Shown one piece after another: positions 36,635 to 52,252 of a DNA stretch of 64,000 nt. Under the pieces are notes generated by a model. That model ran no database searches, was not told the origin of the DNA, and worked only from the letters and a program-made list of their open reading frames with translations. Numbering within the stretch: position 1 is the stretch's first letter; every line of letters begins with the position of its first letter. Source of the stretch: Escherichia phage moha; sequence record MN850590.1; one strand, written 5' to 3'. A program made the position numbers and the translations under genes.

Positions 36635-36639
36635 GAAGC

Positions 36640-36944: not shown

Positions 36945-36978
36945 TAGCCCCTTCCGAAAGGTCGGGGCTTTTTGGCAT
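36945..36978 (+). terminator. rho-independent terminator (34-nt sequence repeated exactly at 52157)
   Basis: TAGCCCCTTCCGAAAGGTCGGGGCTTTTTGGCAT: GC-rich stem, GAAA loop, T5 tract. Confidence 0.8.
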
Positions 36979-37018
36979 AATAATAAATAGATAAGTTAAT
37001 TAACTTAGGAAAAGCAAC

Positions 37019-37483
37019 ATGAAATCATACGCTGAATTTTTGACTGAACAATCTAGTTCAGATGTAAAAGCCGCTGCGATTGCAGCAATTCAAGCAGGTA
37101 AATATTCTTACAAAGACGCCTCTGATGAAGAACGTTTCCGTTTTATTAGAGATTTTAAAGCCGAAGGTTTTACTAATGCTAATACTGTTAGCCGAGTTTT
37201 TAAAAGCCTAGCTGCATCAGGTGAATTGTTCCAGAAAGCTACAGGTAAAGCACCTGCGCCAAAAACAGACCCTAAAGCAGCTCAAGAAAAAAATATCGCC
37301 AAAGGAATTATTTCTAAGTATGAAGCAATTCTTAAAGAGCTTTTAGTAATCAAAACAGAAGGCCAGAAACTGGCACGAGCACATAGCTTCAAAGATAATC
37401 CTCACGCTCATAGCCTTGAGTATGTTGAAGATATCCAAAAACTTATTAAAGACCGTATCTGGTCTGCTAAACAAATTAAATAA
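37019..37483 (+). CDS. internal-protein-like protein with capsid-targeting leader (154 aa)
   Basis: N-terminus MKSYAEFLTE resembles the MKTYQEFIAE leader; followed by a terminator. Confidence 0.6.
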   Translation: MKSYAEFLTEQSSSDVKAAAIAAIQAGKYSYKDASDEERFRFIRDFKAEGFTNANTVSRVFKSLAASGELFQKATGKAPAPKTDPKAAQEKNIAKGIISKYEAILKELLVIKTEGQKLARAHSFKDNPHAHSLEYVEDIQKLIKDRIWSAKQIK

Positions 37484-37489
37484 TAGAAT

Positions 37490-37518
37490 GCCCCTTCCTT
37501 ATGGTTGGGGCCTTTTGG
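37490..37518 (+). terminator. rho-independent terminator
   Basis: GCCCC...GGGGC stem followed by CTTTTGG. Confidence 0.6.
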
Positions 37519-37549
37519 TATCTAGGGCATAAAAATATTTCATAAAGAT

Positions 37550-37578
37550 GTTTACTTCTTCTAAGGACATGATACTAT
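37550..37578 (+). promoter_or_regulatory. early-type promoter
   Basis: GTTTAC, spacer, TG-a-TACTAT, then the TAGACTTATCAA leader and AGAGGA Shine-Dalgarno. Confidence 0.6.
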
Positions 37579-37606
37579 AGACTTATCAACCATAGAGGAA
37601 AATGTT

Positions 37607-38110
37607 ATGAGTCTTTACACTGAACTGAATAAAAAATCTGAAGAATCTGCTGAAACTATTTTTAAAAACGTGCAAAAGCGTATTTTGGAAAAGATGTATG
37701 ATGCAGCATCTAAAGGTGAAAAATCTTGCCGGTTTCCGATGAGGTGTTCTTCTGATTTATGCGCAAATACTATTGAATGGCTGGAAAGTGAAGGTCTTAC
37801 GGTAGAGAAAAACCCGGCGACTTCTATTGACGGCGAATCATATATTAGTATTTCTTGGGATAAATCAAGGGTAGAAGAGAAAGATGGTGATTGGGTTGTA
37901 GATGTTAAAACTTCTGATGGTGGACGTTCTGTTGAAGTTTCGGCTGTAGTTAAAGGTACCCACGAACAAAGGACTTGGGGTTGGGGTGGTGAAGAAAAAG
38001 AAATTGTTCTTAGTGTGATTGCCAGGTCAACTAGTAATAAAATTGCACAAAGCATCATTGACGCTGCAATTGCTGAAGCAGAAAAAATTTGCAAAATTAA
38101 AAATAAATGA
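37607..38110 (+). CDS. hypothetical protein (167 aa)
   Basis: ORF with promoter and Shine-Dalgarno; preferred over the overlapping antisense ORF. Confidence 0.6.
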   Translation: MSLYTELNKKSEESAETIFKNVQKRILEKMYDAASKGEKSCRFPMRCSSDLCANTIEWLESEGLTVEKNPATSIDGESYISISWDKSRVEEKDGDWVVDVKTSDGGRSVEVSAVVKGTHEQRTWGWGGEEKEIVLSVIARSTSNKIAQSIIDAAIAEAEKICKIKNK

Positions 38111-38169
38111 TGTACAAACGCCAAGGATGGTGGTACTATAGACTTATCAACTACAGAGGAGTAAACAAA

Positions 38170-38334
38170 ATGACTACTTTAATTATTTGGTTCGATGAAA
38201 ATGAAGAAACATACTGTGTGAATATTGGTGAAAGTCCAATGCCTGAATTTGAATCCTCGGATAAAAACTCTGTTGTATCTTGGGCTGAAGGTTATAAAGC
38301 AGCTAAAGGTGACGTTGAAATAATTTACATCTAA
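38170..38334 (+). CDS. hypothetical small protein (54 aa)
   Basis: ATG after CAGAGGAGTAAACAAA, the same leader as at 1840-1862. Confidence 0.5.
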   Translation: MTTLIIWFDENEETYCVNIGESPMPEFESSDKNSVVSWAEGYKAAKGDVEIIYI

Positions 38335-38380
38335 GTAAGTTTATGTTATAGTAGTCCTATCAAATCAAGAGGAAAACAAA

Positions 38381-38608
38381 ATGGCTAAAGTTAGTATTGA
38401 TGTCGTTGATTATGAATACACAGAAGAAGTTATTCGCAACCGCCACCCTGAAGTTCGTATCGATTCAGTCCAAGATTCCAAGTTCTGGACAACTGAGCTT
38501 AATCTGAGTGGTCCTTATGAAGCTGTTAAGAAGTTCATGGTTGAAGAATACTGCGAAGGCATGCACCCCGAAGACGCCAAGTTTTATGTCAATTTGATTA
38601 AAAAATAA
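38381..38608 (+). CDS. hypothetical protein (75 aa)
   Basis: ORF downstream of a truncated PeSL copy (right arm TAGTCCTATC at 38352-38361) with an AGAGGAAAA Shine-Dalgarno. Confidence 0.55.
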   Translation: MAKVSIDVVDYEYTEEVIRNRHPEVRIDSVQDSKFWTTELNLSGPYEAVKKFMVEEYCEGMHPEDAKFYVNLIKK

Positions 38609-38640
38609 TTTACAAACTCTTGAGAGCAGAGTATAATGCT
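38609..38640 (+). promoter_or_regulatory. sigma70-type promoter with the -10 inside an inverted repeat
   Basis: TTTACA, 17-bp spacer, TATAAT, with GAGAGCA / TGCTCTC arms flanking the -10. Confidence 0.6.
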
Positions 38641-38678
38641 CTCGTTGGATAATAAACCACCAATTGAAAGGTAATAAT

Positions 38679-39272
38679 ATGAACACACTGAAGAAACTTG
38701 TTGAATTCATCCGCACTAAACTTGGTACTGCTATGGCTAAAAATCTGACTGTCGAAGAACAGTATAACGCAGCTGCAGATAAGTTGATTACCCAAATCAA
38801 AGAACTAAAAACGGCTTCTGTTAAATCTATTAATGAAGAAAAACGTATTCGCGAACTTGTTAATGAAAAGAACAAGCAAGCCGCTTCTAAGGAACGTGAA
38901 ATTCGTAAGCTCCTGGCTGAAGGACAAGATGTTACCATGCATGCTAAGCTTGGTCTTCTGTATCGTCGAACTGCCGAACAACTTAATACAAAAGCTGACG
39001 GGTATGCCGCTATGCGAATTGAAATTGCTCGTAAGGTGGTTGAACTTGATGATGCTCGTCAGAATCTGGCAATCAAACTCGAATACATTCGTGAAACTCG
39101 AGCAGCCAATGCCCTTGGTATCTCTACGGCCGATGATGTAATTGAAATAGCTGCACTGACTAAGGTTGATATCGAAGACACTCTGACTCGTGTTGAAACG
39201 TTCAATGGCACTCCAGCCGGCGTCGAAACCACTTCTGCTGATGTACAAGAATATATTAACTCTTTGAAATAA
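38679..39272 (+). CDS. coiled-coil protein, possibly PspA/IM30-like (197 aa)
   Basis: Long heptad-rich helical sequence with an amphipathic N-terminus; assignment is by eye only. Confidence 0.4.
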
Positions 39273-39280
39273 AATAATAC

Positions 39281-39302
39281 GGAGGACTCCGGTCCTCCTT
39301 TT
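39281..39302 (+). terminator. rho-independent terminator
   Basis: GGAGGAC-tccg-GTCCTCC followed by TTTT. Confidence 0.7.
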
Positions 39303-39321
39303 GGATAATAAAGGAGTTAAC

Positions 39322-39924
39322 ATGCGAAACCAAAATAATGATATTGACTCAATGTTCGAAGAGTTCCGAGATAAGGTAAATCCACCTACGTCTTTAGTTG
39401 ATTCATTACGATATGTTGCAACCGGACGTAAATGGTACTGGTCGTCTTCTTATGAGACCACCGAGAAAACGGCTAGCCATAGCAGAAAATCTTTATTAGC
39501 CCCAGGTATTATGATTCATGATATCGGAGCTATTGCTAAACTAGTTGCAGACCATGATATTAGATTCACCGATTTCGTTGCTCCTACATGGTCTGTTTGT
39601 TGTTTAAACACTGAATGGGAATATATCAGCGAACGCTCTAAAGATTATTATGGTTTTAGAGATAAGCTTCTGAGGTCTAATATGTTTTATATCGATACAG
39701 AAGTTCTAGTCGATAATAAAAAATATTACTTTACGTTAATCATCGATTCTGAAACTATGTATGAAGGCAAGCCTTTGCTTAAAAGAGTTGATGCTTTAAG
39801 TGCTATTGATGCGCTTTATGAAACTATGGTTGTTAGTCCTAATTTCACTAACAATTTAATCCTTGAGCAATTTATTATGGAATGTAGAGAATATGTCAAA
39901 GCCAACCCTATACATGCCAAGTAA
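39322..39924 (+). CDS. hypothetical protein (200 aa)
   Basis: ATG after an AAGGAG Shine-Dalgarno. Confidence 0.55.
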   Translation: MRNQNNDIDSMFEEFRDKVNPPTSLVDSLRYVATGRKWYWSSSYETTEKTASHSRKSLLAPGIMIHDIGAIAKLVADHDIRFTDFVAPTWSVCCLNTEWEYISERSKDYYGFRDKLLRSNMFYIDTEVLVDNKKYYFTLIIDSETMYEGKPLLKRVDALSAIDALYETMVVSPNFTNNLILEQFIMECREYVKANPIHAK

Positions 39925-40285
39925 GCCCTGGGCGTATGAATACAAGCGTAAATTAATCCCAAATGAAGTACTATTTGGCCCTATTTTAGCTTTAGCATTT
40001 TTAATCTTTATGATTATAGGAGCTGTTTTAGATTCTAGTGAAGTTATATCGTCTGATGCAGTGTTTTTACTTATTATAGCCGGGTCGTTTATTGTGCCAT
40101 TTTTATTAATGCCTATTAACTGGGTGGGATATTGGTACCAAGGACGTCATTATAGAGCTCGAGTACGCGAATGGAAAATTCAATGTGCAAAAGCTCAAGC
40201 TCAGTATGATGAAGCTGTTAAAAAGTATGAATATGAAGAAGCTATGGAATTCGTTAAGGAAATAAGATGCAAAAGCCTGAACTGA
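39893..40285 (+). CDS. hypothetical membrane protein; start uncertain
   Basis: ORF with two hydrophobic segments; candidate starts at 39863, 39893 and 39914. Confidence 0.4.
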   Translation: MSKPTLYMPSKPWAYEYKRKLIPNEVLFGPILALAFLIFMIIGAVLDSSEVISSDAVFLLIIAGSFIVPFLLMPINWVGYWYQGRHYRARVREWKIQCAKAQAQYDEAVKKYEYEEAMEFVKEIRCKSLN

Positions 40286-40383
40286 ATTTATGCTGTTTAC
40301 GCTTCTCAAATGATTAGTTATAATGAACTCCTAGCTAGACGTGAAAATGAAACAATCGAAAACTTTATTAAGGAATGTAGAAA

Positions 40384-40689
40384 ATGAGTAAGATTATTGA
40401 AATTAAAGTACCAGAGTTTAATGATGCCAAATCCGCTTCAGATGCAATTTATAAACTTCTGAATCAAGCTGAACGTATCGAAGAAGAAGCAACAAAGATC
40501 GCAGACCAATATGCCGTATCATTTTCTGTAGGTGATTATGGTAGCGGTCGTACTTATTATCCTAAGGGTGAAATCGTATCCCAGTGGATGAAAAATGAAA
40601 TTGAAAATAACGGTGGCGATGTTAAGCGTGAAGGTAATGGTTACATTATTACTGAAGGTGCTTGGGTTTCGTCTTCTGCGTTGTGTTAA
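40384..40689 (+). CDS. small protein, paralog family member 1 (C-terminal GAWVSSSALC)
   Basis: 101-aa ORF; shares a C-terminal W-V-S/A-S-S-x-x-C motif with the next two ORFs. Confidence 0.55.
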   Translation: MSKIIEIKVPEFNDAKSASDAIYKLLNQAERIEEEATKIADQYAVSFSVGDYGSGRTYYPKGEIVSQWMKNEIENNGGDVKREGNGYIITEGAWVSSSALC

Positions 40690-40698
40690 GGAATCATT

Positions 40699-40971
40699 AT
40701 GTCTAAAGAACAAACCGAACTGGCTGAAGCTGTAGCAAAAATCTATGCAGCTATTGAGGCTGCCAAAGAAATTGCTGATAAACAAAACACAACATTCAAC
40801 TTGTACCCAGCTTATGGTATGGGTGGAACCTATCATTCACCCGGACATCTTAAAGCCGATCTTGAACGTTGTACAAAAAACGGCTATGCTGAATGGGCTG
40901 ACGTTTACCAATACGACTACAACCTGAGCCTCGAAACTGGTGGTTGGGTCGCATCTTCTCACACTTGCTAA
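40699..40971 (+). CDS. small protein, paralog family member 2 (C-terminal GGWVASSHTC)
   Basis: 90-aa ORF in tandem with the previous one. Confidence 0.55.
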   Translation: MSKEQTELAEAVAKIYAAIEAAKEIADKQNTTFNLYPAYGMGGTYHSPGHLKADLERCTKNGYAEWADVYQYDYNLSLETGGWVASSHTC

Positions 40972-40980
40972 GGAAACAAT

Positions 40981-41178
40981 ATGTCTCGTGAATTAGATTG
41001 TGCTGTACGTACGGCAGTAGCTGCCCTGGAAAACCTGTTCCAAATTGCAACAGAAGAACGCGAAGAAGTTACATTATGGATTGAAGATAACGCAGGTCTG
41101 AATCTCCAGGACGCGATCTCATTATCCCACAATAGTATCACTGTTCAAGGCTGGGTATCATCTAGTTATTCTTGCTAA
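40981..41178 (+). CDS. small protein, paralog family member 3 (C-terminal QGWVSSSYSC)
   Basis: 65-aa ORF in tandem with the previous two. Confidence 0.55.
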   Translation: MSRELDCAVRTAVAALENLFQIATEEREEVTLWIEDNAGLNLQDAISLSHNSITVQGWVSSSYSC

Positions 41179-41182
41179 AACA

Positions 41183-41221
41183 GTTTACAACAAGATAGGG
41201 CTATGTTATAGTAGTCCTATC
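41183..41221 (+). promoter_or_regulatory. PeSL-type cassette, copy 2
   Basis: GTTTAC, then GATAGGGCTA-tgttatag-TAGTCCTATC (one mismatch in the left arm). Confidence 0.6.
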
Positions 41222-41240
41222 AAAACAAATGGAGTCCACA

Positions 41241-41480
41241 ATGATTTATTACGAAAGTATCGGAACCAAAGTGGTTGGTAAAACCATTACTCGTGAAAAG
41301 TTTGCAAAGATATTCGATATGCGTTATAAAAAATCTGAACACAAAGGCATCCGATTCGAAGATGCGCACTGTACAATTTGCCCTTATAATGAAGACATAA
41401 ACGGTACAATCGTTCCATTGGTAGAGGCTTCACATGATGACCTCTGGGATGAATATAATATCGCATGTCGTGAAATTTAA
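41241..41480 (+). CDS. hypothetical protein (79 aa)
   Basis: Start taken at the ATG after the GGAG in the leader; the ORF track start (41229) lies inside the Shine-Dalgarno. Confidence 0.5.
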   Translation: MIYYESIGTKVVGKTITREKFAKIFDMRYKKSEHKGIRFEDAHCTICPYNEDINGTIVPLVEASHDDLWDEYNIACREI

Positions 41481-41508
41481 GTTAATGAATTAATCCGAGG
41501 AAAATATT

Positions 41509-42465
41509 ATGATGTTAGTTATTGGTTCTCGTGCACTTCACTATCACGGTCTTATTGATTCTAGCGCTATTAAAAATAGTGATTGGGACTTTATTGCGGA
41601 CCAATGTTCTTGGAATGCATTCAAAAATCAAATGATGGGTGTATATGTTCACCAAGATAACCCTGATGTCCAAGTTTTCAAATGCTTCCATAATGGACGC
41701 GAAACTCATTTTGAAGCATATATTGTTCCGGCAATCACTAATGTCCGTGAATTAGTCGGTGAACTCACTCCTGAAGATTTCACGTCTTCTTATGACCTTT
41801 TAAAATACGCCAAGAAAAATTTGACTAAAGACCGTTTGAACGGGTTTTACTGGGCAACTCCTGAGATATGTCTTGCAATTAAGATGTCTCATCGTTTCAA
41901 GAAAAATAATCCATTCTTTTTAAAGACTATGAACCATATTCAGTATCTTCGTGGTAAAGGTGTTACACTGAACGATGAACTTACTGAAATTATGCTGAAA
42001 CGCCAGAAAGAAACCTTGAACTATGCTCACCCAGTTCTTGACACTTCTAAAAGTGCGTTCTTTAAAGATGACATCTATACATATGACCATGATACTATTC
42101 ATGAAGCCATTGCACTAACAGACCGTCCGGCGTATACATTTTATATGAAAGATGGTTCTGAAGTCATGACCTCACGCGAGAAGTTCGAATCGTTACCAGA
42201 AATGGTCAAATTGGCCGGCGTATACGAAGAATCATGTGTACTAGCATTAGAACGTTCTCAAATTCCTAATGACTTTAAAATTAACCCTGAAGCCAGTTTT
42301 ATGATGGCATTGGAAAAAGTCTGTACAAGCATCACCTCTGGTTGGTTCCGTGAGTACGCATACGAGAACTATTATGAAGTAGTGGCTATGTATCATAAGC
42401 TCGGCAAAAATGATTACATCAAACGGTTTAAAGAAAATTTTCATATGGTAAAACCTTTCAAATAA
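41509..42465 (+). CDS. hypothetical protein (318 aa)
   Basis: Long ORF; N-terminus IGSRALHYHG...SDWDF loosely resembles a nucleotidyltransferase GS...DxD motif. Confidence 0.55.
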   Translation: MMLVIGSRALHYHGLIDSSAIKNSDWDFIADQCSWNAFKNQMMGVYVHQDNPDVQVFKCFHNGRETHFEAYIVPAITNVRELVGELTPEDFTSSYDLLKYAKKNLTKDRLNGFYWATPEICLAIKMSHRFKKNNPFFLKTMNHIQYLRGKGVTLNDELTEIMLKRQKETLNYAHPVLDTSKSAFFKDDIYTYDHDTIHEAIALTDRPAYTFYMKDGSEVMTSREKFESLPEMVKLAGVYEESCVLALERSQIPNDFKINPEASFMMALEKVCTSITSGWFREYAYENYYEVVAMYHKLGKNDYIKRFKENFHMVKPFK

Positions 42466-42477
42466 TTTCGCAAAACT

Positions 42478-42515
42478 GTTTACACAATTATAGGACTATG
42501 TTACAGTAGTCCTAT
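42478..42515 (+). promoter_or_regulatory. PeSL-type cassette, copy 3
   Basis: GTTTAC, then ATAGGACTA-tgttacag-TAGTCCTAT; both arms are complementary to each other. Confidence 0.6.
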
Positions 42516-42536
42516 TAAAAACATGAGGAGAATATT

Positions 42537-42842
42537 ATGAAATTAACAGACACCAATCGAATCGGTCTTTTAACAATATTTGCATCACCTTTTTACGCAG
42601 CCCTTTCTGTTGCAGTATTACAAAAGGCTTACGATATGGATGGTGTTCCTGGTTTTGTATTCTTATCGCCGTTTTTGCTATTCGTTGGAGCTTTGTTATT
42701 ATATGCCACGACTAGTTTCGACCATAATGTCTGGGTCAATTATAAACGTAAATTGACCGAAGAAGAACACGCAGAAGCTCGTAAAAAAGCTATTGAATCT
42801 ACCAATCTAGAAAATTTCATTAAAGAATGTCGAGGAAAATAA
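42537..42842 (+). CDS. hypothetical membrane protein (101 aa)
   Basis: Two hydrophobic segments; GAGGAG Shine-Dalgarno. Confidence 0.55.
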   Translation: MKLTDTNRIGLLTIFASPFYAALSVAVLQKAYDMDGVPGFVFLSPFLLFVGALLLYATTSFDHNVWVNYKRKLTEEEHAEARKKAIESTNLENFIKECRGK

Positions 42843-42843
42843 T

Positions 42844-43530
42844 ATGAATAGTTCTAAAGTGTTTAATAGTCAAGCTCGTGCAGTAGGTGGTTTTGCTCAT
42901 GCGATTAAAAATGACCAGATTAAAAACGAGCCTATGTTCTTTAATTGCGATTTGAATTTTGCTTTTGATAACGGCGGTCCAATTACTCGTAGCTTTATCC
43001 AAAATCTCCCTGACGATTGGAAAGACTCGGATGTAGTATTTGATTCACGAGTCCACATGCTGATGCCTGGTTGGTACCCTGCTATCCCAGGTTATCACCA
43101 TGACGATGTTCCACGTCCTGATATTCCAGTTGGTCAACACTTTATTACTGCAGGACAACCCGATTATGACAATCCTCGCTATTTGTCTGAACATATTCTT
43201 GGTCTTGTTAACGCTGATGTGTGTCCTACTCATTTTGCAACAGGAACTGCAGAGTTCAGTCAGATTCCTGATGGCGAACTTATCTATCGTCAGTGGCACA
43301 AAGAAGTCCTCGAAAAAATTGAAAAAGGTGAACTAGAGAAATGGGAAGCTCCAGATCGTACTCTTCTTCAGTTTGATTGGCAAACATGGCACACTGGTTC
43401 TCGTGCAATTAGTAACGGATGGCGTTGGTTCGGACGTGTATCTCGTAATACAGACCGAGTTAAAAAGATTACCAATGAAATTCGTGTCAACGCTCAAGTT
43501 TATCTAGAATTCCCTATGGAAGGCTGGTAA
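42844..43530 (+). CDS. hypothetical protein (228 aa)
   Basis: ORF tightly coupled to its neighbours. Confidence 0.55.
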   Translation: MNSSKVFNSQARAVGGFAHAIKNDQIKNEPMFFNCDLNFAFDNGGPITRSFIQNLPDDWKDSDVVFDSRVHMLMPGWYPAIPGYHHDDVPRPDIPVGQHFITAGQPDYDNPRYLSEHILGLVNADVCPTHFATGTAEFSQIPDGELIYRQWHKEVLEKIEKGELEKWEAPDRTLLQFDWQTWHTGSRAISNGWRWFGRVSRNTDRVKKITNEIRVNAQVYLEFPMEGW

Positions 43531-44009
43531 TGATTAACAATAATATAGACGATGGCGACGAAGGTATTTCATACTATTCAGTAGATTGGACAGGATGTCC
43601 ATCCTACTTAGTGAAACACCATTGTCAAGCATTTAAAATCGACAAACCAGCAGGTATTATCGTGAACAGATACATTAATGGATATCAACCTATCGATGAA
43701 GTAATACGAACAACCCAAGCTGAGCTTGAAAAGTTTTTCAATAAGTGTCAATGGATAACAGGATGGATTATATTTGTACCGTCAGTGTGGTTTTTTAGTA
43801 CTAAAGTAAGTGCCTTTGCTATACTAGATATTATCGCTATCTTATTAGCATCTACTATCGTAAGTATAATTGGCGGTATTATTGGTGGAGGTACTGTAGG
43901 CATCATTATTAATCTTGTTAAAAGTAGTTTACAGGAACGTAAAGACAAGATAAAGGCCAAGAATAATGAAGTTGAACGTTTTATTACCGAATGCAGGAAT
44001 TTGAGATGA
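43530..44009 (+). CDS. hypothetical membrane protein (159 aa)
   Basis: TAATG overlap with the upstream gene; Gly/Ile-rich transmembrane segments. Confidence 0.55.
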   Translation: MINNNIDDGDEGISYYSVDWTGCPSYLVKHHCQAFKIDKPAGIIVNRYINGYQPIDEVIRTTQAELEKFFNKCQWITGWIIFVPSVWFFSTKVSAFAILDIIAILLASTIVSIIGGIIGGGTVGIIINLVKSSLQERKDKIKAKNNEVERFITECRNLR

Positions 44010-44690: not shown

Positions 44691-44724
44691 GTAATAAATA
44701 CCTCCTATAAACGTGGGAGGTATT

Positions 44725-45213
44725 ATGAATATATTTGAAATGCTTCGTAATGACGAAGGTCTTAGACTGACTTTATACAAAGACACTGAAGGCTTTTGGA
44801 CGATTGGCATTGGCCATTTAGTAACAAAGAATCCGTCTTTAGCCGTAGCTAAAGCTGAACTTGACAGAATGATCGGGCGTAAATGCAACGGTACAATTAC
44901 CCTTGATGAGGCTGAAAAGCTATTTAATGAAGACGTCGATAAAGCCGTTCGCGGAATCTTGGGTAATGCTAAACTTAAACCGGTATATGATTCTTTAGAT
45001 GCGGTTCGTCGATGTGCATTGGTCAATATGGTCTTCCAAATGGGTGTAGCAGGCGTCGCTGGTTTTACTAATTCTCTTCGTATGCTTCAACAGAAACGTT
45101 GGGATGAAGCGGCAGTAAATCTAGCCCAATCTAAATGGTATCGTCAGACACCTAATCGCGCGAAACGCGTAATCTCAACATTTAAAACAGGAACTTGGAA
45201 AGCGTATATATGA
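44725..45213 (+). CDS. e: endolysin (T4-type lysozyme)
   Basis: Translation [32 protein letters not shown]... is near-identical to T4 lysozyme; start taken at the ATG after a GGGAGG Shine-Dalgarno. Confidence 0.97.
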
Positions 45214-45491
45214 AAACATATAGTGAATTTTTATCAGAATCTATTCTTAACGAAGCTACTGACACATTTGCAACTAAGCTAGGTGCAGCTTTGGTTGAAG
45301 CCGAAAGTCTATTAGCACGTATTTCTGAACTTGCTAGTAAGATAGATACTCGCAAATTTGAACGTACCAGCGATATCGCTAAGCTTGAAGCCTTGTTACG
45401 TATGTGCGATAAACCGGACGAAATCGCTAAGAATGGCTCGCTAATGAAACAACGTCTTGAAAAATATATTTCAGGCGCTTCAGAAAAATAG
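45210..45491 (+). CDS. internal-protein-like protein with capsid-targeting leader (93 aa)
   Basis: Starts [10 protein letters not shown]; ATGA overlap with the e stop. Confidence 0.6.
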
Positions 45492-45492
45492 T

Positions 45493-45546
45493 GTTTACTT
45501 CCTCCAAGGACTTTGATACTATACATTCATCAACTACTTGGAGGAA
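45493..45546 (+). promoter_or_regulatory. early-type promoter with a Shine-Dalgarno-sequestering inverted repeat, upstream of denV
   Basis: GTTTAC, then left arm TTCCTCCAAG (45499-45508), TG-a-TACTAT -10, and right arm CTTGGAGGAA (45537-45546) containing the GGAGG Shine-Dalgarno. Confidence 0.6.
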
Positions 45547-45549
45547 ATT

Positions 45550-45963
45550 ATGACCCGTATCAATTTAACACTTGTTTCTGAACTGACCGACCAACATCTT
45601 ATGGCTGAGTATCGTGAATTACCACGCGTATTTGGTGCAGTCCGTAAACATGTTCAAAACGGTAAACGTGTAAAGGATTTTAAAATCTCTCCAACATTTA
45701 TCTTAGGCACAGGTCACGTAACATTCTTTTACGACAAACTCGAATTTTTACGTTTACGTCAAATCGAGCTAATCGCTGAATGCTTGAAACGTGGTTTCAA
45801 AATCAAGGACACGACTGTCCAGGATATTTCCGACATTCCTGTAGAATTTCGTAATAATTATGTCCCGTCCGAAGCGTCCATTGCGATAAGTCAAGCACGC
45901 TTAGATGAAAAAATTGCTCAACGTCCGACTTGGTACAAATACTATGGTAAATCAATTTACTAA
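45550..45963 (+). CDS. denV: endonuclease V (pyrimidine dimer DNA glycosylase)
   Basis: Translation [34 protein letters not shown]... is near-identical to T4 endonuclease V; 137 aa. Confidence 0.95.
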
Positions 45964-45969
45964 GGAAAA

Positions 45970-46230
45970 ATGAAAATGTATCAAGAATTTATCATTGAAG
46001 CAGATGCCAAAGGTCCTAAATTTAAAGTTAAAGCTTTCATTGGTGATGCGGAAGACTTTGGCTCATTAAAACGTAATGGGTATTTTTTCTTAGGTGGCGA
46101 TGGTAAAGAAATCAACACCTATGCAAAACGTAGTGAAATTGCTTATGTTGTAGCAAGTCCTAAAGTAGATGTTGACGATATTGGATACGATTTTAACAAC
46201 TTCGGAATTATTTCTGGCGGTAAAGCTTAA
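45970..46230 (+). CDS. internal-protein-like protein with capsid-targeting leader (86 aa)
   Basis: Starts MKMYQEFIIE. Confidence 0.55.
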   Translation: MKMYQEFIIEADAKGPKFKVKAFIGDAEDFGSLKRNGYFFLGGDGKEINTYAKRSEIAYVVASPKVDVDDIGYDFNNFGIISGGKA

Positions 46231-46233
46231 ATT

Positions 46234-46263
46234 GTTTACGCTTAAGTATTAATATGGTATAAT
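46234..46263 (+). promoter_or_regulatory. early-type promoter (GTTTAC, 18 bp, TG-g-TATAAT)
   Basis: Near-consensus extended -10 followed by the CTATCAAAACAAA leader. Confidence 0.6.
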
Positions 46264-46294
46264 TACTCTATCAAAACAAACAAGGAAACAAAAA

Positions 46295-46873
46295 ATGAAA
46301 ACATATAAAGAATTTATCGCCGAGGCCTTTGCAGGAAAAGCTCAAGGCATTAATAAGGACGAGTGGAATTATCGTGGCGGAAACGGCTTTGACCCTAAAA
46401 CTGCTCCACTTGAACGATATCTAGCCACAAAGGCTTCTGATTTTAAAGCCTTCGCTTGGGAAGGACTTCGCTGGCGTAACGATTTAAATATTGAAGTTGA
46501 CGGACTTAAATTTGCTCATATTGAAGATGTTGTTGCTAGTAACTTAGACGCAGCTTTTGTTAAAGCCGACAGTGACCTTCGTCGCTGGAATTTAAAACTG
46601 TTCTCTAAACAAAAAGGCCCGAAGTTTGTGCCTAAAGCAGGTAAATGGGTTATTGATAATAAATTAGCTAAGGCTGTCAACTACGCCGGTCTTGAATTTG
46701 CCAAGCATAAATCATCATGGAAAGGTCTTGATGCAATGGCTTTCCGTAAAGAATTTGCCGATGTTATGGCTAAAGGCGGCTTTAAGGCAGAAATAGATAC
46801 CTCTAAAGGTACGTTTAAGGACGCTAATGTTCAGTATGCTTACGCCGTTGCTAATGCGGCCCGTGGTAATTAA
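46295..46873 (+). CDS. internal protein III-like protein with capsid-targeting leader (192 aa)
   Basis: Starts MKTYKEFIAEA; similar in size to T4 IPIII (194 aa). Confidence 0.65.
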   Translation: MKTYKEFIAEAFAGKAQGINKDEWNYRGGNGFDPKTAPLERYLATKASDFKAFAWEGLRWRNDLNIEVDGLKFAHIEDVVASNLDAAFVKADSDLRRWNLKLFSKQKGPKFVPKAGKWVIDNKLAKAVNYAGLEFAKHKSSWKGLDAMAFRKEFADVMAKGGFKAEIDTSKGTFKDANVQYAYAVANAARGN

Positions 46874-46875
46874 TA

Positions 46876-46897
46876 AGGCCTAAGTATAGGCCTATTT
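46876..46897 (+). terminator. hairpin, putative weak terminator
   Basis: AGGCCTA-agta-TAGGCCT followed by ATTT. Confidence 0.35.
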
Positions 46898-47051
46898 ACA
46901 TTCAAATAAAATGGGAACAACCTGGACCTCATGATTCTATGAGGGATTCCCGCCAACCTGTAATAAGGTCGAGCCCAAGTGCGGTAATGGGTAAATACAG
47001 AAATGGACAATTCATGCGCCATGGAATGGCCCAACCTAAAAGAGAAACTAA

Positions 47052-47591
47052 ATGAGAACATTTTTAACCGGTCCTTATCTATCCCTGATGAATGCTTTTA
47101 CACACCATTCTGATGCTAGAGTAGAAGAAATTTGTAAGAACGGTTATGTCCCACCATTTGAAGACGTACTCAAGCAGTACTGTACACTTCGTTTAGACGG
47201 CGGCAGACAATCAGGTAAATCAATTGCTGTGACTAACTTTGCTGCTAATTGGCTGTATGATGGCGGAACAGTTATTGTTCTTTCTAATACTTCAGCTTAT
47301 GCTAAAATTTCTGCTGGCAACATTAAAAAAGAATTTTCTCGTTATTCTAGCGATGATATTCGATTCCGTTTATTTACTGATTCTGTTCGTAGTTTTATTG
47401 GCAATGAAGGTTCTAAATTCCGTGGATTAACGCTTTCTCGTATTCTGTATATAATTGACGAGCCTATTAAAGCTCCTGATATGGATAAGATTTACAATGT
47501 CCACATTAAAACAGTACAGCACTGCTGCAAAAGCAAATATTGCATCAGCGGTAATGCTCGTCCTCAATTTTTTGTGATTGGAATGCAATGA
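47052..47591 (+). CDS. P-loop NTPase-like hypothetical protein (179 aa)
   Basis: Walker A-like GGRQSGKS and Walker B-like ILYIIDEP. Confidence 0.5.
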   Translation: MRTFLTGPYLSLMNAFTHHSDARVEEICKNGYVPPFEDVLKQYCTLRLDGGRQSGKSIAVTNFAANWLYDGGTVIVLSNTSAYAKISAGNIKKEFSRYSSDDIRFRLFTDSVRSFIGNEGSKFRGLTLSRILYIIDEPIKAPDMDKIYNVHIKTVQHCCKSKYCISGNARPQFFVIGMQ

Positions 47592-47896
47592 TGACCACTA
47601 TTGAAGTTTTTGAGTATTGTTATAACAGCCCAGTATGCAATAAAAGGGCTCTTGTAGAAAATTATGAGATTTACCATTTTAAACCTAAACGATATCGTTT
47701 GACTAAAGGTCCGTTCGCAGGGCAGCAGGTTCTTTGTACTGCTCCTAATGCACGGTTGATGACTAGTATTCCGCATTTCAAAATGGAATTTATTGATGGG
47801 CCATTTAAGGGATTAATCACTCAAAGTTTAATGGCATTTAATTCCGACCCATTTTTGATTAAAGAAAAATCTTGGATAAATTTATTTTCTAATTGA
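47588..47896 (+). CDS. hypothetical protein (102 aa)
   Basis: ORF with start overlapping the upstream stop. Confidence 0.5.
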   Translation: MMTTIEVFEYCYNSPVCNKRALVENYEIYHFKPKRYRLTKGPFAGQQVLCTAPNARLMTSIPHFKMEFIDGPFKGLITQSLMAFNSDPFLIKEKSWINLFSN

Positions 47897-47902
47897 GGTT
47901 AT

Positions 47903-48265
47903 ATGAAAGCATATCAAATTCTTGAAGGTGCACATAAAGGCACTATTTATTTTGAAGACGGTACTCAAGCCCGGATTATTGTCTCTAAGACTTTTAAAGA
48001 AGACGCTATTGTAGACCCGGAAATTTTCTACGGTTTGAATGCCCGTGAAATTGAAATTGAACATCAACCTAAAGTTAAAATTGAAGGTGGTCAACACCTG
48101 AACGTTAACGTTCTGCGTCGCGAAACTCTGGAAGATGCAGTTAAGCATCCGGAAAAATATCCGCAGCTGACCATTCGTGTATCCGGTTATGCAGTTCGCT
48201 TTAACTCTCTGACTCCGGAACAGCAGCGCGACGTTATCGCTCGTACCTTTACTGAGAGTCTATAA
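47903..48265 (+). CDS. GrcA/YfiD-like autonomous glycyl radical cofactor
   Basis: 120-aa ORF with the glycyl-radical motif RVSGYAV near the C-terminus; the C-terminal roughly 60 codons are GC-rich with host-like codon choice. Confidence 0.8.
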
Positions 48266-48489
48266 TGGCTAAATTGATTATAGAAGGGTCTGAAGATGTT
48301 TTAAAATGTTTTGCCGCCTGGTTTAGTTGCTCAGGCGAGCAATCATTCACTGAAGCATTTAGAATGGGTGATATTACTGGAAACTATCCGACAACTGATA
48401 TCACTGTACGTGGATATGGTATTAATGAGCCTATCCAATTGGTCGAATATGACCTTGCCACCGATGAGGAAATTCCTTATGTCGATTGA
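48265..48489 (+). CDS. hypothetical protein (74 aa)
   Basis: TAATG overlap with the upstream gene. Confidence 0.5.
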   Translation: MAKLIIEGSEDVLKCFAAWFSCSGEQSFTEAFRMGDITGNYPTTDITVRGYGINEPIQLVEYDLATDEEIPYVD

Positions 48490-48745
48490 AGATATTAAAG
48501 GTTACAAACCGCACACCGATGACAAAATCGGTAAAGTGAACGCTATTAAAGATGCCGAAGTCCGTCTTGGATTGTTGTTTGATGCTCTGATTGAAGAAGC
48601 ATATATCTTGAAAGAAAATGAAACAGAGCAACAAACCAAAGAAGATATGGATGCAGTGCAGGCTCTTAAGTATGCTAAGCAACATCTAAAAGAAGCCAGC
48701 ATGTGGGCATGCCGTGCAGTATTTCGACCTGAGGAAAAATACTAG
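48479..48745 (+). CDS. hypothetical protein (88 aa)
   Basis: Start taken at the ATG overlapping the upstream stop; the longer ORF-track frame from 48311 is probably not translated. Confidence 0.45.
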   Translation: MSIEDIKGYKPHTDDKIGKVNAIKDAEVRLGLLFDALIEEAYILKENETEQQTKEDMDAVQALKYAKQHLKEASMWACRAVFRPEEKY

Positions 48746-48954
48746 TGAAAATTGAAAGTTTGCAAGAATTCCAACGTATCATTAGCGAAGCCTGTACCGG
48801 TTACCACAAATATTTGCTCGATGACCAGGTTGCTTGTCTTGAAGAAGGCGAAATGCAGTACGCTGTCCAGCGCCTTGAACAAGTGAAAGAGTTTTATCCT
48901 GCAATGGTAGAAATTTGTTCGATAGCTGGAAAACTCACACCATTCCAAGAATAA
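48745..48954 (+). CDS. hypothetical protein (69 aa, GTG start)
   Basis: GTG start preceded by GAGGAAAAA. Confidence 0.4.
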   Translation: MKIESLQEFQRIISEACTGYHKYLLDDQVACLEEGEMQYAVQRLEQVKEFYPAMVEICSIAGKLTPFQE

Positions 48955-48958
48955 AGTA

Positions 48959-49009
48959 GTTTACTTCTCCTCTAGTTGTGTTACTATAGACCTGTCAACT
49001 AGAGGAGAA
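48959..49009 (+). promoter_or_regulatory. early-type promoter with a 14-bp Shine-Dalgarno-sequestering inverted repeat, upstream of regB
   Basis: GTTTAC, left arm TTCTCCTCTAGTTG (48965-48978), TG-t-TACTAT -10, right arm CAACTAGAGGAGAA (48996-49009). Confidence 0.65.
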
Positions 49010-49015
49010 ATCAAA

Positions 49016-49474
49016 ATGACTATCAATTCAGACGTTTTTATCCGCCGTAATAAACTCCGTCGAATCTTTGAAACGGAGTTCCGCAAAATAAATGCCAGTA
49101 TAAAAGATGCTGCAAAGTCTCTTGGACTACCAGGCTTTCATATCAAGTATTCTCAACATCTCTTAGATCGTGCCATCCAGAGAGAAATAGATGAGAATTA
49201 CGTTTTTGAATTATTTCATAAAGTAAAAAATCATGTTAAAGAAGTTGCAGAATTTTTATCAATGCCGGCACGTCCAGATGTTGATGAAGATTTTGTCGAA
49301 GGTGTCGAATATCGCCCAGGCCGTTTAGAAATAACTGACGGAAATCTTTGGTTAGGACTTACAGTTTGTCGCGAAAATCCGGCATTCAAAATGAAGACTC
49401 TTCAATGTAGAATGGCTATTATTAACAGTAAACGACTACCAGGAAAAGCTTCTAAAGCAGTGATTAAAATCTAG
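49016..49474 (+). CDS. regB: RegB endoribonuclease
   Basis: 152-aa ORF (T4 RegB is 153 aa) recognisable as RegB, located between denV and tk. Confidence 0.8.
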   Translation: MTINSDVFIRRNKLRRIFETEFRKINASIKDAAKSLGLPGFHIKYSQHLLDRAIQREIDENYVFELFHKVKNHVKEVAEFLSMPARPDVDEDFVEGVEYRPGRLEITDGNLWLGLTVCRENPAFKMKTLQCRMAIINSKRLPGKASKAVIKI

Positions 49475-49482
49475 AGGTAAAC

Positions 49483-50025
49483 ATGAGAAAAGCACTACTC
49501 GCTGGTCTATTTGCTCTTTCATTATCAGCACATAGCTCCGAGCATACTTTTAGTAATGTCCAACTCGATAACTTGAATTATGCTTATCAGTTTGGGGAAC
49601 AGTTTTCTAAGGATGGAAAATTTAAAACGCATGAAAATATGCATAAGAAAGGACTTGGATACATAATGGCCGCAATACTATGGCAGGAATCATCTGCCGG
49701 TATTAATCTTAAAGATAAGAAAGGTCACCATGCGTATGGAATGTTCCAAAATTATCTACCGACAATGAGGGCAAGAATTAACCAGCTTGGTTATAATATG
49801 ACTGATGCCCAAATTAAGAAAATGCTATCTAAGCGGTCTAATTCAGCCAGATGGGCTTATATCGAATTTTCTTATTGGTTAAATATACATAACGGGGATA
49901 TAAGAAAAGCTATATCCTCATATAATGCGGGATGGAAGACAAGTGCCGGAAGTAAATATGCTTCTGAAGTCCTAGAAAAGGCTAATTACCTTAAATCAAA
50001 TAAACTACTGGAAATAAAAGAATGA
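49483..50025 (+). CDS. secreted lytic transglycosylase (SLT-domain)-like protein (180 aa)
   Basis: N-terminal signal peptide (MRKALLAGLFALSLSAHS) and SLT-like motifs (WQESSAG, GMFQ, YNAGW). Confidence 0.55.
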   Translation: MRKALLAGLFALSLSAHSSEHTFSNVQLDNLNYAYQFGEQFSKDGKFKTHENMHKKGLGYIMAAILWQESSAGINLKDKKGHHAYGMFQNYLPTMRARINQLGYNMTDAQIKKMLSKRSNSARWAYIEFSYWLNIHNGDIRKAISSYNAGWKTSAGSKYASEVLEKANYLKSNKLLEIKE

Positions 50026-50369
50026 CCAAAATGTTGGCTTTAATAGTTGGCTTGGTTTCATTTAATGCTCTTGCTAATACTACATATACTGATGTAACGG
50101 AGTATACAAACAGAACGGCGTCTGATTATTGTGGTAAAAGTCAAGAGTGTAAAGTAGATTTTTCACAAAAATTGTTATATGCGTATAAAGACGGAGAAAA
50201 AGACGGGGCGTCTAGTAGGTTCAAGGCGTCTACCTTAATTAAAAGATACTATAAAAAATGGCAAATATTAGAATGCTCGGTGGCGGAACCTAAAGATAAG
50301 GCAGCATGCAATTCTATGGTGGACCGTCTAGTTGACTCTTATAATAGAGGACTTGCAGCAAGTGATTAA
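50022..50369 (+). CDS. secreted hypothetical protein (115 aa)
   Basis: Signal peptide (MTKMLALIVGLVSFNALA) and four cysteines; ATGA overlap with the SLT-like gene. Confidence 0.55.
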   Translation: MTKMLALIVGLVSFNALANTTYTDVTEYTNRTASDYCGKSQECKVDFSQKLLYAYKDGEKDGASSRFKASTLIKRYYKKWQILECSVAEPKDKAACNSMVDRLVDSYNRGLAASD

Positions 50370-50826
50370 AAACTATATCAAGGGCGATATTGTCGCCCTG
50401 TTTTCTAAAGGTAATAATATTGCTCATGGGTGTAATTGTTTTCATACAATGGGCGCGGGTGTGGCAGGACAATTAGCAAAGGCTTATCCAAAAATTCTGG
50501 AAGCCGATAAACTTCAAACCGAATTCGGAGACGAGTCTAAACTCGGGACTTATTCGGTTTATGAAAAATATTTTAAGACCCATAAAGCTTATTGCTTTAA
50601 TCTTTATACACAGTTTGAGCCGGGACCTAATTTTGAGTACTCTGCTTTAATGAATTGTATAATAGAATTAAATGAATTCGGAAAGAATAAGATAACAAAG
50701 CCTGTAATTTATATGCCAAGAATTGGTGCAGGTATTGGTGGTGGAAACTGGGATGTCATCGAAGAGATTTTAGATACGTATTCCACTAAACTAGAAATTG
50801 TGATTGTTGATTGGGAACCTAAATGA
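50362..50826 (+). CDS. macro domain (ADP-ribose binding/hydrolase) protein
   Basis: Motifs KGDIVALF, IAHGCNCFHTMGAGVAGQL and PRIGAGIGGG. Start is uncertain: GTG at 50362 lies 10 nt after a TAGAGGA Shine-Dalgarno, and the ORF-track start at 50332 is a TTG. Confidence 0.65.
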   Translation: MIKNYIKGDIVALFSKGNNIAHGCNCFHTMGAGVAGQLAKAYPKILEADKLQTEFGDESKLGTYSVYEKYFKTHKAYCFNLYTQFEPGPNFEYSALMNCIIELNEFGKNKITKPVIYMPRIGAGIGGGNWDVIEEILDTYSTKLEIVIVDWEPK

Positions 50827-51005
50827 AATTAACTAAAGAAGAGAAAGCTAAACTGTTCGAACTTATCCATGACCTATTGGATGAACAAGCAGCCACCAAT
50901 GCGTATGATGAATATGCTCCTTTAACAGATGAAGAATATCAAGCATTGATGGAATCATTTGACAGGAAAGAACAAGAACTCATTGACTACGTGAATTCAC
51001 TATAA
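50823..51005 (+). CDS. hypothetical small acidic protein (60 aa)
   Basis: ORF with start overlapping the upstream stop. Confidence 0.45.
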   Translation: MKLTKEEKAKLFELIHDLLDEQAATNAYDEYAPLTDEEYQALMESFDRKEQELIDYVNSL

Positions 51006-51014
51006 GGGACTCTT

Positions 51015-51596
51015 ATGGCTAGTTTAATTTTTACCTATGCCGCTATGAACGCTGGTAAGTCTGCTTCATTACTTACTGCCGCACATAACTATAAAGAACG
51101 TGGCATGGGTGTATTAGTTCTTAAACCGGCTATTGATACTCGCGATTCAAAAGGTGAAATAGTCTCTCGTATTGGTATTCGTCAGGACGCCAATATAATT
51201 ACAAAAGACATGGATATCTTTGAATTTTATAAATGGGCTGCAGCACAAAAGGATATTCACTGCGTATTTGTTGACGAAGCTCAGTTCTTAACTACTGAAA
51301 AGGTGTATCAACTTAGTCGTATTGTTGACGTATACAATGTGCCGGTAATGGCATATGGACTACGAACAGATTTTAAAGGTAATCTATTTGAAGGTTCTCA
51401 AGCATTAATGGCTATTGCCGATAAGCTTGTTGAACTTAAAGGTGTCTGTCATTGTGGTAAAAAGGCCACAATGGTAGCTAGAGTCACGGAAGACGGACTT
51501 CCAATTACAGATGGCAGTCAAATTGAAATTGGTGATACCGATAGATATGTGTCATTATGCCGGAAGCATTGGAACGATTTGACAGGGTTGTTATAA
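51015..51596 (+). CDS. tk: thymidine kinase
   Basis: 193-aa ORF with a P-loop (AAMNAGKSASL) and a C-terminal CHCGKKA zinc motif; recognisable as T4 Tk and the same length. Confidence 0.93.
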   Translation: MASLIFTYAAMNAGKSASLLTAAHNYKERGMGVLVLKPAIDTRDSKGEIVSRIGIRQDANIITKDMDIFEFYKWAAAQKDIHCVFVDEAQFLTTEKVYQLSRIVDVYNVPVMAYGLRTDFKGNLFEGSQALMAIADKLVELKGVCHCGKKATMVARVTEDGLPITDGSQIEIGDTDRYVSLCRKHWNDLTGLL

Positions 51597-51623
51597 ATAC
51601 TAATATCTAACCAAGAGGTATAT

Positions 51624-51836
51624 ATGCAGCAATTAAACGAAAGACAACTTCGTAATCTTACTGTAACCCAATTGGATGAAATCCGAAGAGAATTAGGACA
51701 TTCTATTTCTCATTTAAACGAGGATATCCGTCAAACTGGTTCTAAAGCTGATTATACACGCAAGCGCAAGCTGGAAAAATACCTCACAGATGTTAAGGCC
51801 GTCCAAAGGCGAAAAATAAATACTGGCCAAAATTAA
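51624..51836 (+). CDS. hypothetical protein (70 aa)
   Basis: ORF after an AAGAGG Shine-Dalgarno. Confidence 0.5.
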
Positions 51837-51848
51837 CAGGAGGCCTAT

Positions 51849-52151
51849 ATGGCCTTAAGAGCGATAGCTGTCATAGCGATGCTGGGGTTTTTTGCAGCAA
51901 CAACTCCTATCGTTGGTACTGCACATATCGACCCATATTTTGATAACTTTATGGAATCAGGGATTAAAAACGTATATACTTTGTTTGAAATTCAAAATGT
52001 CGAGAATTCTGAAAAATTCTATAAGTATATGGCAAAGCATTACAAAAATAGCCCCTGTGATGATGCATTTGAATGTTATGAACAAGGCATAAAAACTGCC
52101 AGACAATTTGCCGAGTTCATGAAAATAAAATTAGAGCCTACATCTATCTAA
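51849..52151 (+). CDS. rI: lysis inhibition regulator RI (antiholin)
   Basis: 100-aa ORF with an N-terminal signal-anchor and conserved DPYFDNFMESGI...FEC pattern; recognisable as T4 RI. Confidence 0.75.
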   Translation: MALRAIAVIAMLGFFAATTPIVGTAHIDPYFDNFMESGIKNVYTLFEIQNVENSEKFYKYMAKHYKNSPCDDAFECYEQGIKTARQFAEFMKIKLEPTSI

Positions 52152-52156
52152 TTTAC

Positions 52157-52190
52157 TAGCCCCTTCCGAAAGGTCGGGGCTTTTTGGCAT
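52157..52190 (+). terminator. rho-independent terminator (exact copy of the 34-nt element at 36945)
   Basis: TAGCCCCTTCCGAAAGGTCGGGGCTTTTTGGCAT. Confidence 0.8.
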
Positions 52191-52196
52191 CTATCA

Positions 52197-52248
52197 GTTT
52201 ACTTCTCCTCAGGTTGTGTTATAGTAAACCTTACTTACTAGAGGAGAA
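52197..52248 (+). promoter_or_regulatory. early-type promoter with a Shine-Dalgarno-complementary upstream arm
   Basis: GTTTAC, then TTCTCCTC..., TG-t-TATAGT, and ...GAGGAGAA. Confidence 0.55.
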
Positions 52249-52252
52249 CGTT

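Follow-up and report, generated by a model that had tools for sequence, protein, structure and literature searches.

The genome of Escherichia phage moha carries two identical 34-nt copies of a sequence that, judged by its anatomy and position, is a predicted Rho-independent terminator. Their identity is probably best explained by purifying selection on two apparently old paralogous terminators, together with reshuffling of alleles between phages. The stretch of DNA analysed here (64,000 nt of record MN850590.1, hereafter the window) belongs to a Mosigvirus genome, RB69-like and of the T4 type. The 34-mer, TAGCCCCTTCCGAAAGGTCGGGGCTTTTTGGCAT, occurs on the plus strand as copies A and B, with no mismatch in either (Table 1). 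Allowing up to 3 mismatches, exactly two sites were found in the window, and none of 100 dinucleotide-preserving shuffles contained any match. The identity of A and B breaks off at both flanks, where the preceding base is T versus C and the next base A versus C, so the length of 34 nt is exact; the duplication reported in a preliminary description of this DNA thus stands at its full length. That description also correctly placed copy A after a stable-RNA region near tRNAs and copy B after rI. An assembly artefact was ruled out, since the same sites and alleles are present in many independent genomes. The two-copy terminator in moha is genuine yet ordinary: within the genus, matching copies at A and B are the usual situation.

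Table 1. Features at the three hairpin sites, with positions in the window.
Feature	Position	Strand	Details
rnaD (species 2 stable RNA) homologue	36631..36750	+	86.8% identity to annotated T4 rnaD, 121 nt
rnaC (species 1 stable RNA) homologue	36757..36895	+	98.6% identity to T4 rnaC, 97.8% to ATK47 rnaC
3′ trailer of rnaC unit, with small hairpins	36896..36944	+	91.6% identity to T4 over 83 nt including the terminator
Predicted terminator, copy A	36945..36978	+	exact 34-mer; core 36947-36968, T run 36969-36973; fold -16.7 kcal/mol
154-aa ORF	37019..37483	+	between copies A and C; from ORF list
Predicted terminator, copy C (diverged)	37488..37521	+	8/34 mismatches; core 37490-37511; fold -16.4 kcal/mol
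T4-type early promoter after copy C	37551..37578	+	TTTACT, 16 nt, TACTAT; repeat families D3 and D4
rI (lysis inhibition regulator) gene	51849..52151	+	ORF; rI annotation in relatives
Predicted terminator, copy B	52157..52190	+	exact 34-mer; core 52159-52180, T run 52181-52185; fold -15.0 kcal/mol
T4-type early promoter after copy B	52198..52225	+	TTTACT, 16 nt, TATAGT; TG before it
First ORF of next unit	52253..52432	+	ATG at 52253, in frame with ORF 52184-52432

Anatomy of the predicted terminators

The diverged third terminator that the preliminary description placed at 37490-37518 is real, but the full copy (copy C) is longer than that. Copies A, B and C follow a common hairpin plan of GCCCC, a 2x2 internal loop, CC, a tetraloop, GG and GGGGC, then a U run, with predicted stabilities of -15 to -16.7 kcal/mol. 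In A and B, 5 G-C pairs and a CC/GG clamp enclose a GAAA loop, and TTTTT lies directly after the stem as a U5 tail; copy C is distinguished by a TTAT loop and a CTTTTGGTAT tail. GNRA and UUCG tetraloop hairpins are common in T4 intergenic regions. The GC-rich stem, GNRA tetraloop, U tract and location on the coding strand after a gene end are also those of generic phage and bacterial Rho-independent terminators. The mid-stem 2x2 pyrimidine internal loop, conserved in these copies, is unlike that generic design, as are common flanking bases that point to descent from one ancestor.

The intrinsic-terminator anatomy proposed earlier is thus present in full: a GC-rich stem-loop, a U tract and a position at a unit end on the transcribed strand. 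Copy B was flagged as terminator-like in a terminator scan of the window, a terminator is annotated at the site equivalent to copy A in vB_EcoM_G53, and the SA79RD record carries at its copy C site (positions 73872-73903 of that record) a rho-independent terminator annotation credited to WebGeSTer and TransTermHP.

Copy A follows a stable-RNA unit shared with T4

Homologues of rnaD and rnaC lie downstream of tRNA-Met and tRNA-Arg, and the end of rnaC is separated from copy A by 49 nt. From this position and anatomy, copy A would end the tRNA-rnaD-rnaC transcription unit. T4 carries TAGCCCCGACCGAAAGGTTGGGGCTTTTTGGTATCTA after rnaC, a hairpin that is orthologous to copy A by sequence comparison: it occupies the same place after rnaC and its conserved trailer (identities in Table 1), and its GCCCC/GGGGC stem, GAAA loop and TTTTTGG tail are those of copy A. 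It differs in having GA in place of the window's TT; its 9-bp stem is therefore unbroken and lacks the U.U and U.C mid-stem mismatches of the window hairpin. We take the T4 hairpin to be the terminator of the operon, as in the older T4 literature; a literature search on the T4 rnaC terminator returned nothing useful. An Rfam search of the region returned two tRNAs only, with no family for rnaC/rnaD or the hairpin. A pattern scan (TTTAC-N-TAnnnT) found no early promoter within 75 nt downstream of copy A. Several database records place 'hypothetical proteins' across rnaC, rnaD and the copy A terminator; these calls are probably spurious.

Copies B and C adjoin early promoters

Copy B starts 5 nt past the rI stop codon. 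By its anatomy and position it would end tk-rI.1-rI transcripts and insulate these genes from the next unit, which is driven by an early promoter and begins 8 nt downstream. The promoter after copy B has 83% identity to a promoter at 48958-48993 (repeat family D3), and B and C are each directly upstream of a T4-type early promoter with a similar RBS. The first ORF of the unit after copy B occupies the place of the gene annotated as mobD.2a in RB69, and may be its counterpart.

The preliminary description suggested that the terminator travels with an adjacent promoter as a cassette. Such a promoter does adjoin B and C, but none lies beside A; because of this, the A/B pair cannot be a single terminator-promoter cassette copied whole. 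That description also took the exact match to stand out against diverged intergenic sequence elsewhere. This premise does not hold, as several promoter/RBS repeat families in the window retain 90-98% identity over 47-65 nt.

The copies share a common origin

Bases outside the hairpin are common to A, B and C, namely TA ahead of the stem and TTTTTGGYAT(CTA) behind it, and recur in the T4 rnaC terminator; downstream GGYATCTA is found in the T4 counterpart of copy A as well as in B and C of the window. Alignment of the T4 unit after rnaC covers 37 nt with copy B, at 89%, and 35 nt with copy C. Because these shared flanking bases are non-structural, the copies are true paralogues of common descent. 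The alternative, separate origins followed by convergence on one optimal terminator sequence, could draw on the 22-nt hairpin backbone GCCCCTTCC-NNNN-GGTYGGGGC plus T run, which we found in 104 IMG/VR stretches with many unrelated flanking contexts. Convergence would not be expected to produce TA upstream and GGCAT downstream, bases irrelevant to the hairpin, nor 34/34 identity that includes non-hairpin positions, and we regard it as highly improbable.

The terminator after rI is absent in T4, where rI overlaps the next gene, and gene content at site B differs between T4 and Mosigvirus. In the stretches of T4 that were examined, which cover part of its genome, no copy of the rnaC-type hairpin turned up. 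Copying of an A-type unit in the Mosigvirus lineage would have given rise to copy B.

Alleles at sites A and B among related phages

IMG/VR scans anchored on the flanks of A and B gave only 6 and 3 loci, too few for statistics, and the GenBank phage collection was therefore used. Genus-wide, the 34-mer varies at position 19, which lies in the internal loop, and in its tetraloop and tail. A variant with T at position 19, one base removed from the window's sequence, was found at 226 places in 167 Mosigvirus-type records; BEU50 and a20 have it without mismatch at A and at B. The C variant carried by the window occurs in 35 records, nearly all of which have it at one place only: about 17 carry it solely at A and about 12 solely at B, and AV118 has it at both sites. 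Since identical A and B copies are common in the genus, the recent copying or gene conversion proposed in the preliminary description is not needed to account for moha.

We weighed the proposal of a recent ectopic conversion or copying between A and B in moha's own lineage against these distributions. In its favour, the rarer C stands at position 19 of both sites within 34/34 identity, T4-type phages recombine on short homologies (PMC2839356), and NRG-P0074, BEU50 and a20, which are closest to the window across the wider B region, have T at that position, so that one short conversion from A could explain the C at B. However, the window's B hairpin and 160 nt downstream are identical to those of mar005p1 and JK42, whose A sites differ from the window's: mar005p1 has T at position 19, and JK42 has the same hairpin with a different tail. 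In the B haplotypes of all three phages, the C at position 19 goes together with a T at +98. Around site A the window has 99.8-99.9% identity to MM02 and 172859UKE1, which have its A allele and different B alleles; each of its two alleles sits within flanks common to other phages. C also co-occurs at A and B about as often as independence predicts (18 x 13 / 157, about 1.5 expected; 1 verified in the database, AV118, or 2 if AV115 is another), a rough estimate because the denominators are BLAST coverage counts that may include duplicate records. Recent conversion within this lineage consequently appears unlikely.

We consider it probable that selection and exchange between phages suffice. The hairpin and U tract would be under strong functional constraint, leaving very few free positions. 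Genomes in which A and B match are common in the genus, the shared form being the one with T at position 19. When phages co-infect, ordinary homologous recombination would reshuffle alleles at each site, and moha carries the rarer C-at-position-19 allele at both. The hairpin is also widespread: four large IMG/VR contigs (174-181 kb) each carry 2-3 copies of it with an identical core and differing flanks. The terminators would also mark borders of swapped gene cassettes, as PeSL elements (below) are described to do. Under this preferred reading, the repeat flags where two transcription units of an RB69-like phage end and has little import beyond annotation; when short regulatory repeats of T4-type genomes are identical, a recent event should not be read from identity alone, and population data are called for.

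Relation to PeSL cassettes

The closest known concept for the moha repeat is the PeSL, a promoter-early stem-loop cassette of T4-type phages (Arbiol et al. 2010, PMC2839356; Comeau et al. 2014, PMC4122927). PeSLs have been described for RB49/phi1, PST/T4 and nt-1/KVP40, with a PST/T4 promoter consensus of TTTACW-N17-TAYWAT (PMC2839356, PMC4122927); RB69 has 0 occurrences in PMC4122927. Like PeSLs, window copies B and C place a GC-rich, predicted terminating stem-loop beside a strong early promoter, the elements are repeated within one genome, and they lie in variable regions whose small neighbouring ORFs differ between relatives. Copy A marks the edge of such a variable segment, and the PeSL pattern of hyperplastic regions is seen in the varied sequence after copy A and in the site B gene content of T4 versus Mosigvirus. 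The differences are that copy A belongs to a conserved stable-RNA operon, that the hairpin is absent at most early promoters of the window, and that no recombination product between copies, whether empty site or circle, was found here.

The identity of A and B might accordingly reflect mobility of whole cassettes (stem-loop, early promoter and small ORF) moving by recombination, for example through mini-circles, a model described in both papers. This would agree with the promoters and RBSs after B and C, the 154-aa ORF flanked by A and C as direct repeats, a 124-nt tandem duplication in a20 that starts within the 3′ arm of copy B, and the sequence just past the T run of copy A, which exists in at least six versions among phage groups. 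It accords poorly with copy A, which terminates the rnaC unit at an old and fixed position by its conservation with T4, with the stability of copy B and its flanks in about 154 records, and with the majority of early promoters in the window, which have no such upstream hairpin. The A/C deletion form is also undocumented: an artificial query fusing copy A to the tail of copy C was matched in two pieces spanning the ORF in all of the best 30 of 57 junction-covering records. We judge cassette mobility an improbable source of the identity.

Probable exchange of short tracts between copies

Selection with reshuffling between phages, our preferred explanation, does not exclude transfer between the copies themselves. 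A second allele at site B has a TTAT loop and a 22-nt core that equals the copy C core, which makes some past exchange among A, B and C likely. Because both this core and C at position 19 segregate across paralogous sites, a pattern expected in the wake of ectopic conversion, such exchange appears to contribute something, and occasional short templated exchange between copies probably occurs in the population; the moha genome does not require it. A stronger version, which we put forward tentatively and hold to be rather doubtful, is that Mosigvirus terminator paralogues swap very short tracts by ectopic conversion or template switching in the hairpin, so that loci carry borrowed alleles and hairpins become preferred breakpoints for cassette replacement. 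It fits the GAAA allele of site B, which equals copy A, the TTAT allele, which equals copy C, and the C/T polymorphism at position 19, which segregates at A as well as at B. If true, it would provide a small, tractable example of regulatory hairpins helping to shuffle T4-type genes, and would extend the PeSL model to promoterless terminators and to another genus.

Anatomy and setting of the repeat

The window holds two exact copies of the 34-mer TAGCCCCTTCCGAAAGGTCGGGGCTTTTTGGCAT, at sites A and B, both on the + strand. Since the bases bordering A and B differ on either side, 34 nt is the true length of the match, as the preliminary description had it. With up to 3 mismatches allowed, no other match was found in the window, and 100 shuffles gave none. 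The diverged relative also described there, site C (ATGCCCCTTCCTTATGGTTGGGGCCTTTTGGTAT), is present with 8 mismatches to the 34-mer. All three copies share a predicted fold in which a GCCCC/GGGGC stem, a 2x2 pyrimidine internal loop and a CC/GG clamp enclosing a tetraloop (GAAA in A and B, UUAU in C) are followed by a U run. Predicted hairpin stabilities are −15 to −16.7 kcal/mol, and both A and B came up as terminator-like in a consensus scan. Such features are those of a Rho-independent terminator, and termination is the predicted role.

Features around the terminator copies and early-promoter/RBS repeats of the window
Feature	Position	Remarks
tRNA-Met, tRNA-Arg		upstream of A
345-nt ORF		upstream of A
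rnaD homologue	36631-36750	86.8% identical to T4
rnaC (species 1 RNA) homologue	36757-36895	98.6% identical to T4
Trailer		49 nt, between rnaC homologue and A
Terminator A	36945-36978	
154-aa ORF	37019-37483	after A, between A and C
Terminator C	37488-37521	diverged copy
Early promoter after C	37551-37578	
rI	51849-52151	stop codon 5 nt before B start
Terminator B	52157-52190	
Early promoter, T4-type	52198-52225	TTTACT-16-TATAGT, eight bases past B
Small ORF	start 52253	downstream of early promoter 52198-52225
Early-promoter/RBS repeat	1823-1869 and 38130-38176	98% over 47 nt
Early-promoter/RBS repeat	41182-41244 and 52648-52710	90% over 63 nt
Early-promoter/RBS repeat	58859-58923 and 59849-59913	95% over 65 nt

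The phage is a Mosigvirus, of the RB69 group of T4-type phages of E. coli. The records most similar to it are, around A, vB_EcoM-172859UKE1 and MM02 (99.8-99.9% identity) and, around B, NRG-P0074, a20 and APCEc01 (~99%). Given the tRNAs, rnaD, rnaC and trailer upstream of it, A is the end of a tRNA-rnaD-rnaC unit, and no early promoter like those after B and C follows it.

The rnaC homologue is 98.6% identical to T4, whereas nearby protein-coding DNA such as rI is just ~70% identical; Rfam returned no family for it. ORFs of 42 and 49 aa on the + strand (36711-36839 and 36845-36994) overlap rnaC, the trailer and terminator A, and their equivalents are annotated as hypothetical proteins in MM02 and 172859UKE1; these gene predictions are probably spurious, the sequence being that of non-coding RNA. 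The NRG-P0074 locus (L002, PQ480333.1, 9878-10208) has no annotated tRNA genes, nor any of the genes located behind them in other relatives, and it yielded no hairpin of the A or C type. The whole tRNA-rnaC segment thus appears to be missing from this close relative, which suggests that it is dispensable.

Origin of the copies

The T4 orthologue of A, TAGCCCCGACCGAAAGGTTGGGGCTTTTTGGTATCTA, also sits after rnaC; its 9-bp stem is uninterrupted, whereas the window copies carry the 2x2 internal loop. Alignment of the T4 unit extends over 37 nt (89%) against window B and over 35 nt against C, so the copies share bases beyond the hairpin, namely TA in front and GGYAT(CTA) behind. Convergence of separate terminators on one form is disfavoured by these common flanking bases, which argue for common descent. 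Site B is absent from T4, since rI overlaps the next gene in that phage. The most economical history is that A is old and that B and C are copies of an A-type unit made in the Mosigvirus lineage.

Identity of A and B within the genus

Exact identity of A and B had been read as a sign of recent copying or gene conversion. The repeat differs among relatives at position 19, in the internal loop, where the window has C. The 34-mer with T at this position was found at 226 places in 167 phage records. BEU50 and a20 carry it without mismatch at A as well as at B; in RB69, B carries all of it and A a 29-nt part. Within the genus it is therefore common, and probably ancestral, for the terminators at A and B to be identical. 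The window's C variant matched 35 records, almost all of them at a single place. Sorted by the coordinates of the A-region and B-region searches, ~17 carry it at A only (e.g. MM02, 172859UKE1, APCEc01, JK45, mobillu) and ~12 at B only (e.g. mar005P1, p000y, G2469, mogra, AV116). The complete 34-mer was verified at A and B together in a single record, AV118; AV115, also with two matching places, may be a second. Under independent assortment, a rough estimate over ~157 records with B context gives ~1.5 expected double carriers, which the single verified one matches.

The A and B alleles each travel with their own flanks. MM02 and 172859UKE1 are nearly identical to the window in the A region, and their B alleles differ from the window's, being TTAT-T and GAAA-T, respectively (named by tetraloop, with T at position 19). 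Conversely, mar005p1 and JK42 share the window's B hairpin and the 160 nt downstream of it exactly; at A, position 19 is T in mar005p1, and in JK42 the window's hairpin is joined to a different tail. With the T variant widespread, the C variant mostly at single sites and alleles keeping their flanks, recent copying or conversion is not needed. In the simplest account, A and B would be two old paralogous terminators kept alike by purifying selection; ordinary recombination between co-infecting phages would reshuffle the alleles at each site, and by chance would have put the C allele at both sites of the moha genome.

Possible exchange between copies, and cassette boundaries

The alleles of site B fall into two classes, one with a GAAA loop and the core of A, the other with a TTAT loop and the 22-nt core of C. 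They are 3 clustered substitutions apart in an otherwise ~99% identical 240-nt context, and the TTAT class occurs on several flank haplotypes. The position-19 C/T polymorphism segregates at both A and B, and the tail variants GGCAT and GGTAT recur across sites. This sharing of polymorphisms suggests that, in the past of the population, copies occasionally exchanged short templated tracts, though mutation in parallel at the few positions free of constraint may also explain it. Right after A's T run the sequence differs among at least six phage groups (window type, JK42/mar005p1 type, RB69, two IMG/VR genomes and T4), while the rnaC side upstream is conserved in all of them. Among the best 30 of 57 records, no form lacking the ORF between A and C was found. 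That the hairpins both swap short tracts by templated exchange and act as breakpoints for gene replacement is a tentative, rather doubtful proposal, and if true would be of modest significance only.

Phage a20 (L114, OQ067374.1, ~132,500-132,650, corresponding to window 52176-52300) carries a 124-nt tandem duplication whose start lies within terminator B, in its 3′ arm (GGGGCTTTTTGGCATC...), and which takes in the early promoter and the following ORF's first codons; an additional small CDS, a20_217, is annotated there. In L003 (5417-5440), L004 (5506-5530), L014 and L092, another gene follows terminator A, and the exact T4 late-promoter motif TATAAATA lies immediately past A's T run; the window has AATAAATA at 36982-36989.

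Relation to known cassettes and other repeats

Among described elements, the repeat comes closest to the PeSL (promoter-early stem-loop) of T4-type phages, a terminating stem-loop plus early promoter repeated in hyperplastic regions, for which recombination was demonstrated and mini-circles were detected in RB49 and phi1 (PMC2839356); the PST/T4 and nt-1/KVP40 pairs were added later (PMC4122927). B and C match the PeSL layout. A lacks the promoter and is more aptly seen as the conserved, predicted terminator of a stable-RNA operon, so the A/B pair does not suit the suggestion that the terminator travels with a promoter cassette. The repeat is real and explained, a further example of repeated regulatory cassettes already described in T4-type phages.

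The backbone GCCCCTTCC-NNNN-GGTYGGGGC plus T run was found in 104 IMG/VR stretches with many different flanking contexts. Four large contigs (174-181 kb) carry 2-3 copies each of an identical 22-nt hairpin, GCCCCTTCCTTTCGGTTGGGGC, with different flanks; the multi-copy loci are L012, L018, L013, L027, L052, L021, L040, L047, L057, L067 and L077. Many of these copies lie between an A run on the upstream side and a T run on the downstream side, so they may act as bidirectional terminators.

Within the window, the terminator repeat is an ordinary member of the repeated regulatory DNA, which comprises eight direct-repeat families, mostly early-promoter/RBS cassettes. The three early-promoter/RBS pairs in the table are longer than the terminator repeat, and in some cases their members lie tens of kilobases apart. 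A further terminator and early-promoter composite at 55213-55300 has another hairpin (GGGACC-TTCG-GGTCCC, UUCG loop), and the promoter region after it is 75% identical to the promoter following C.
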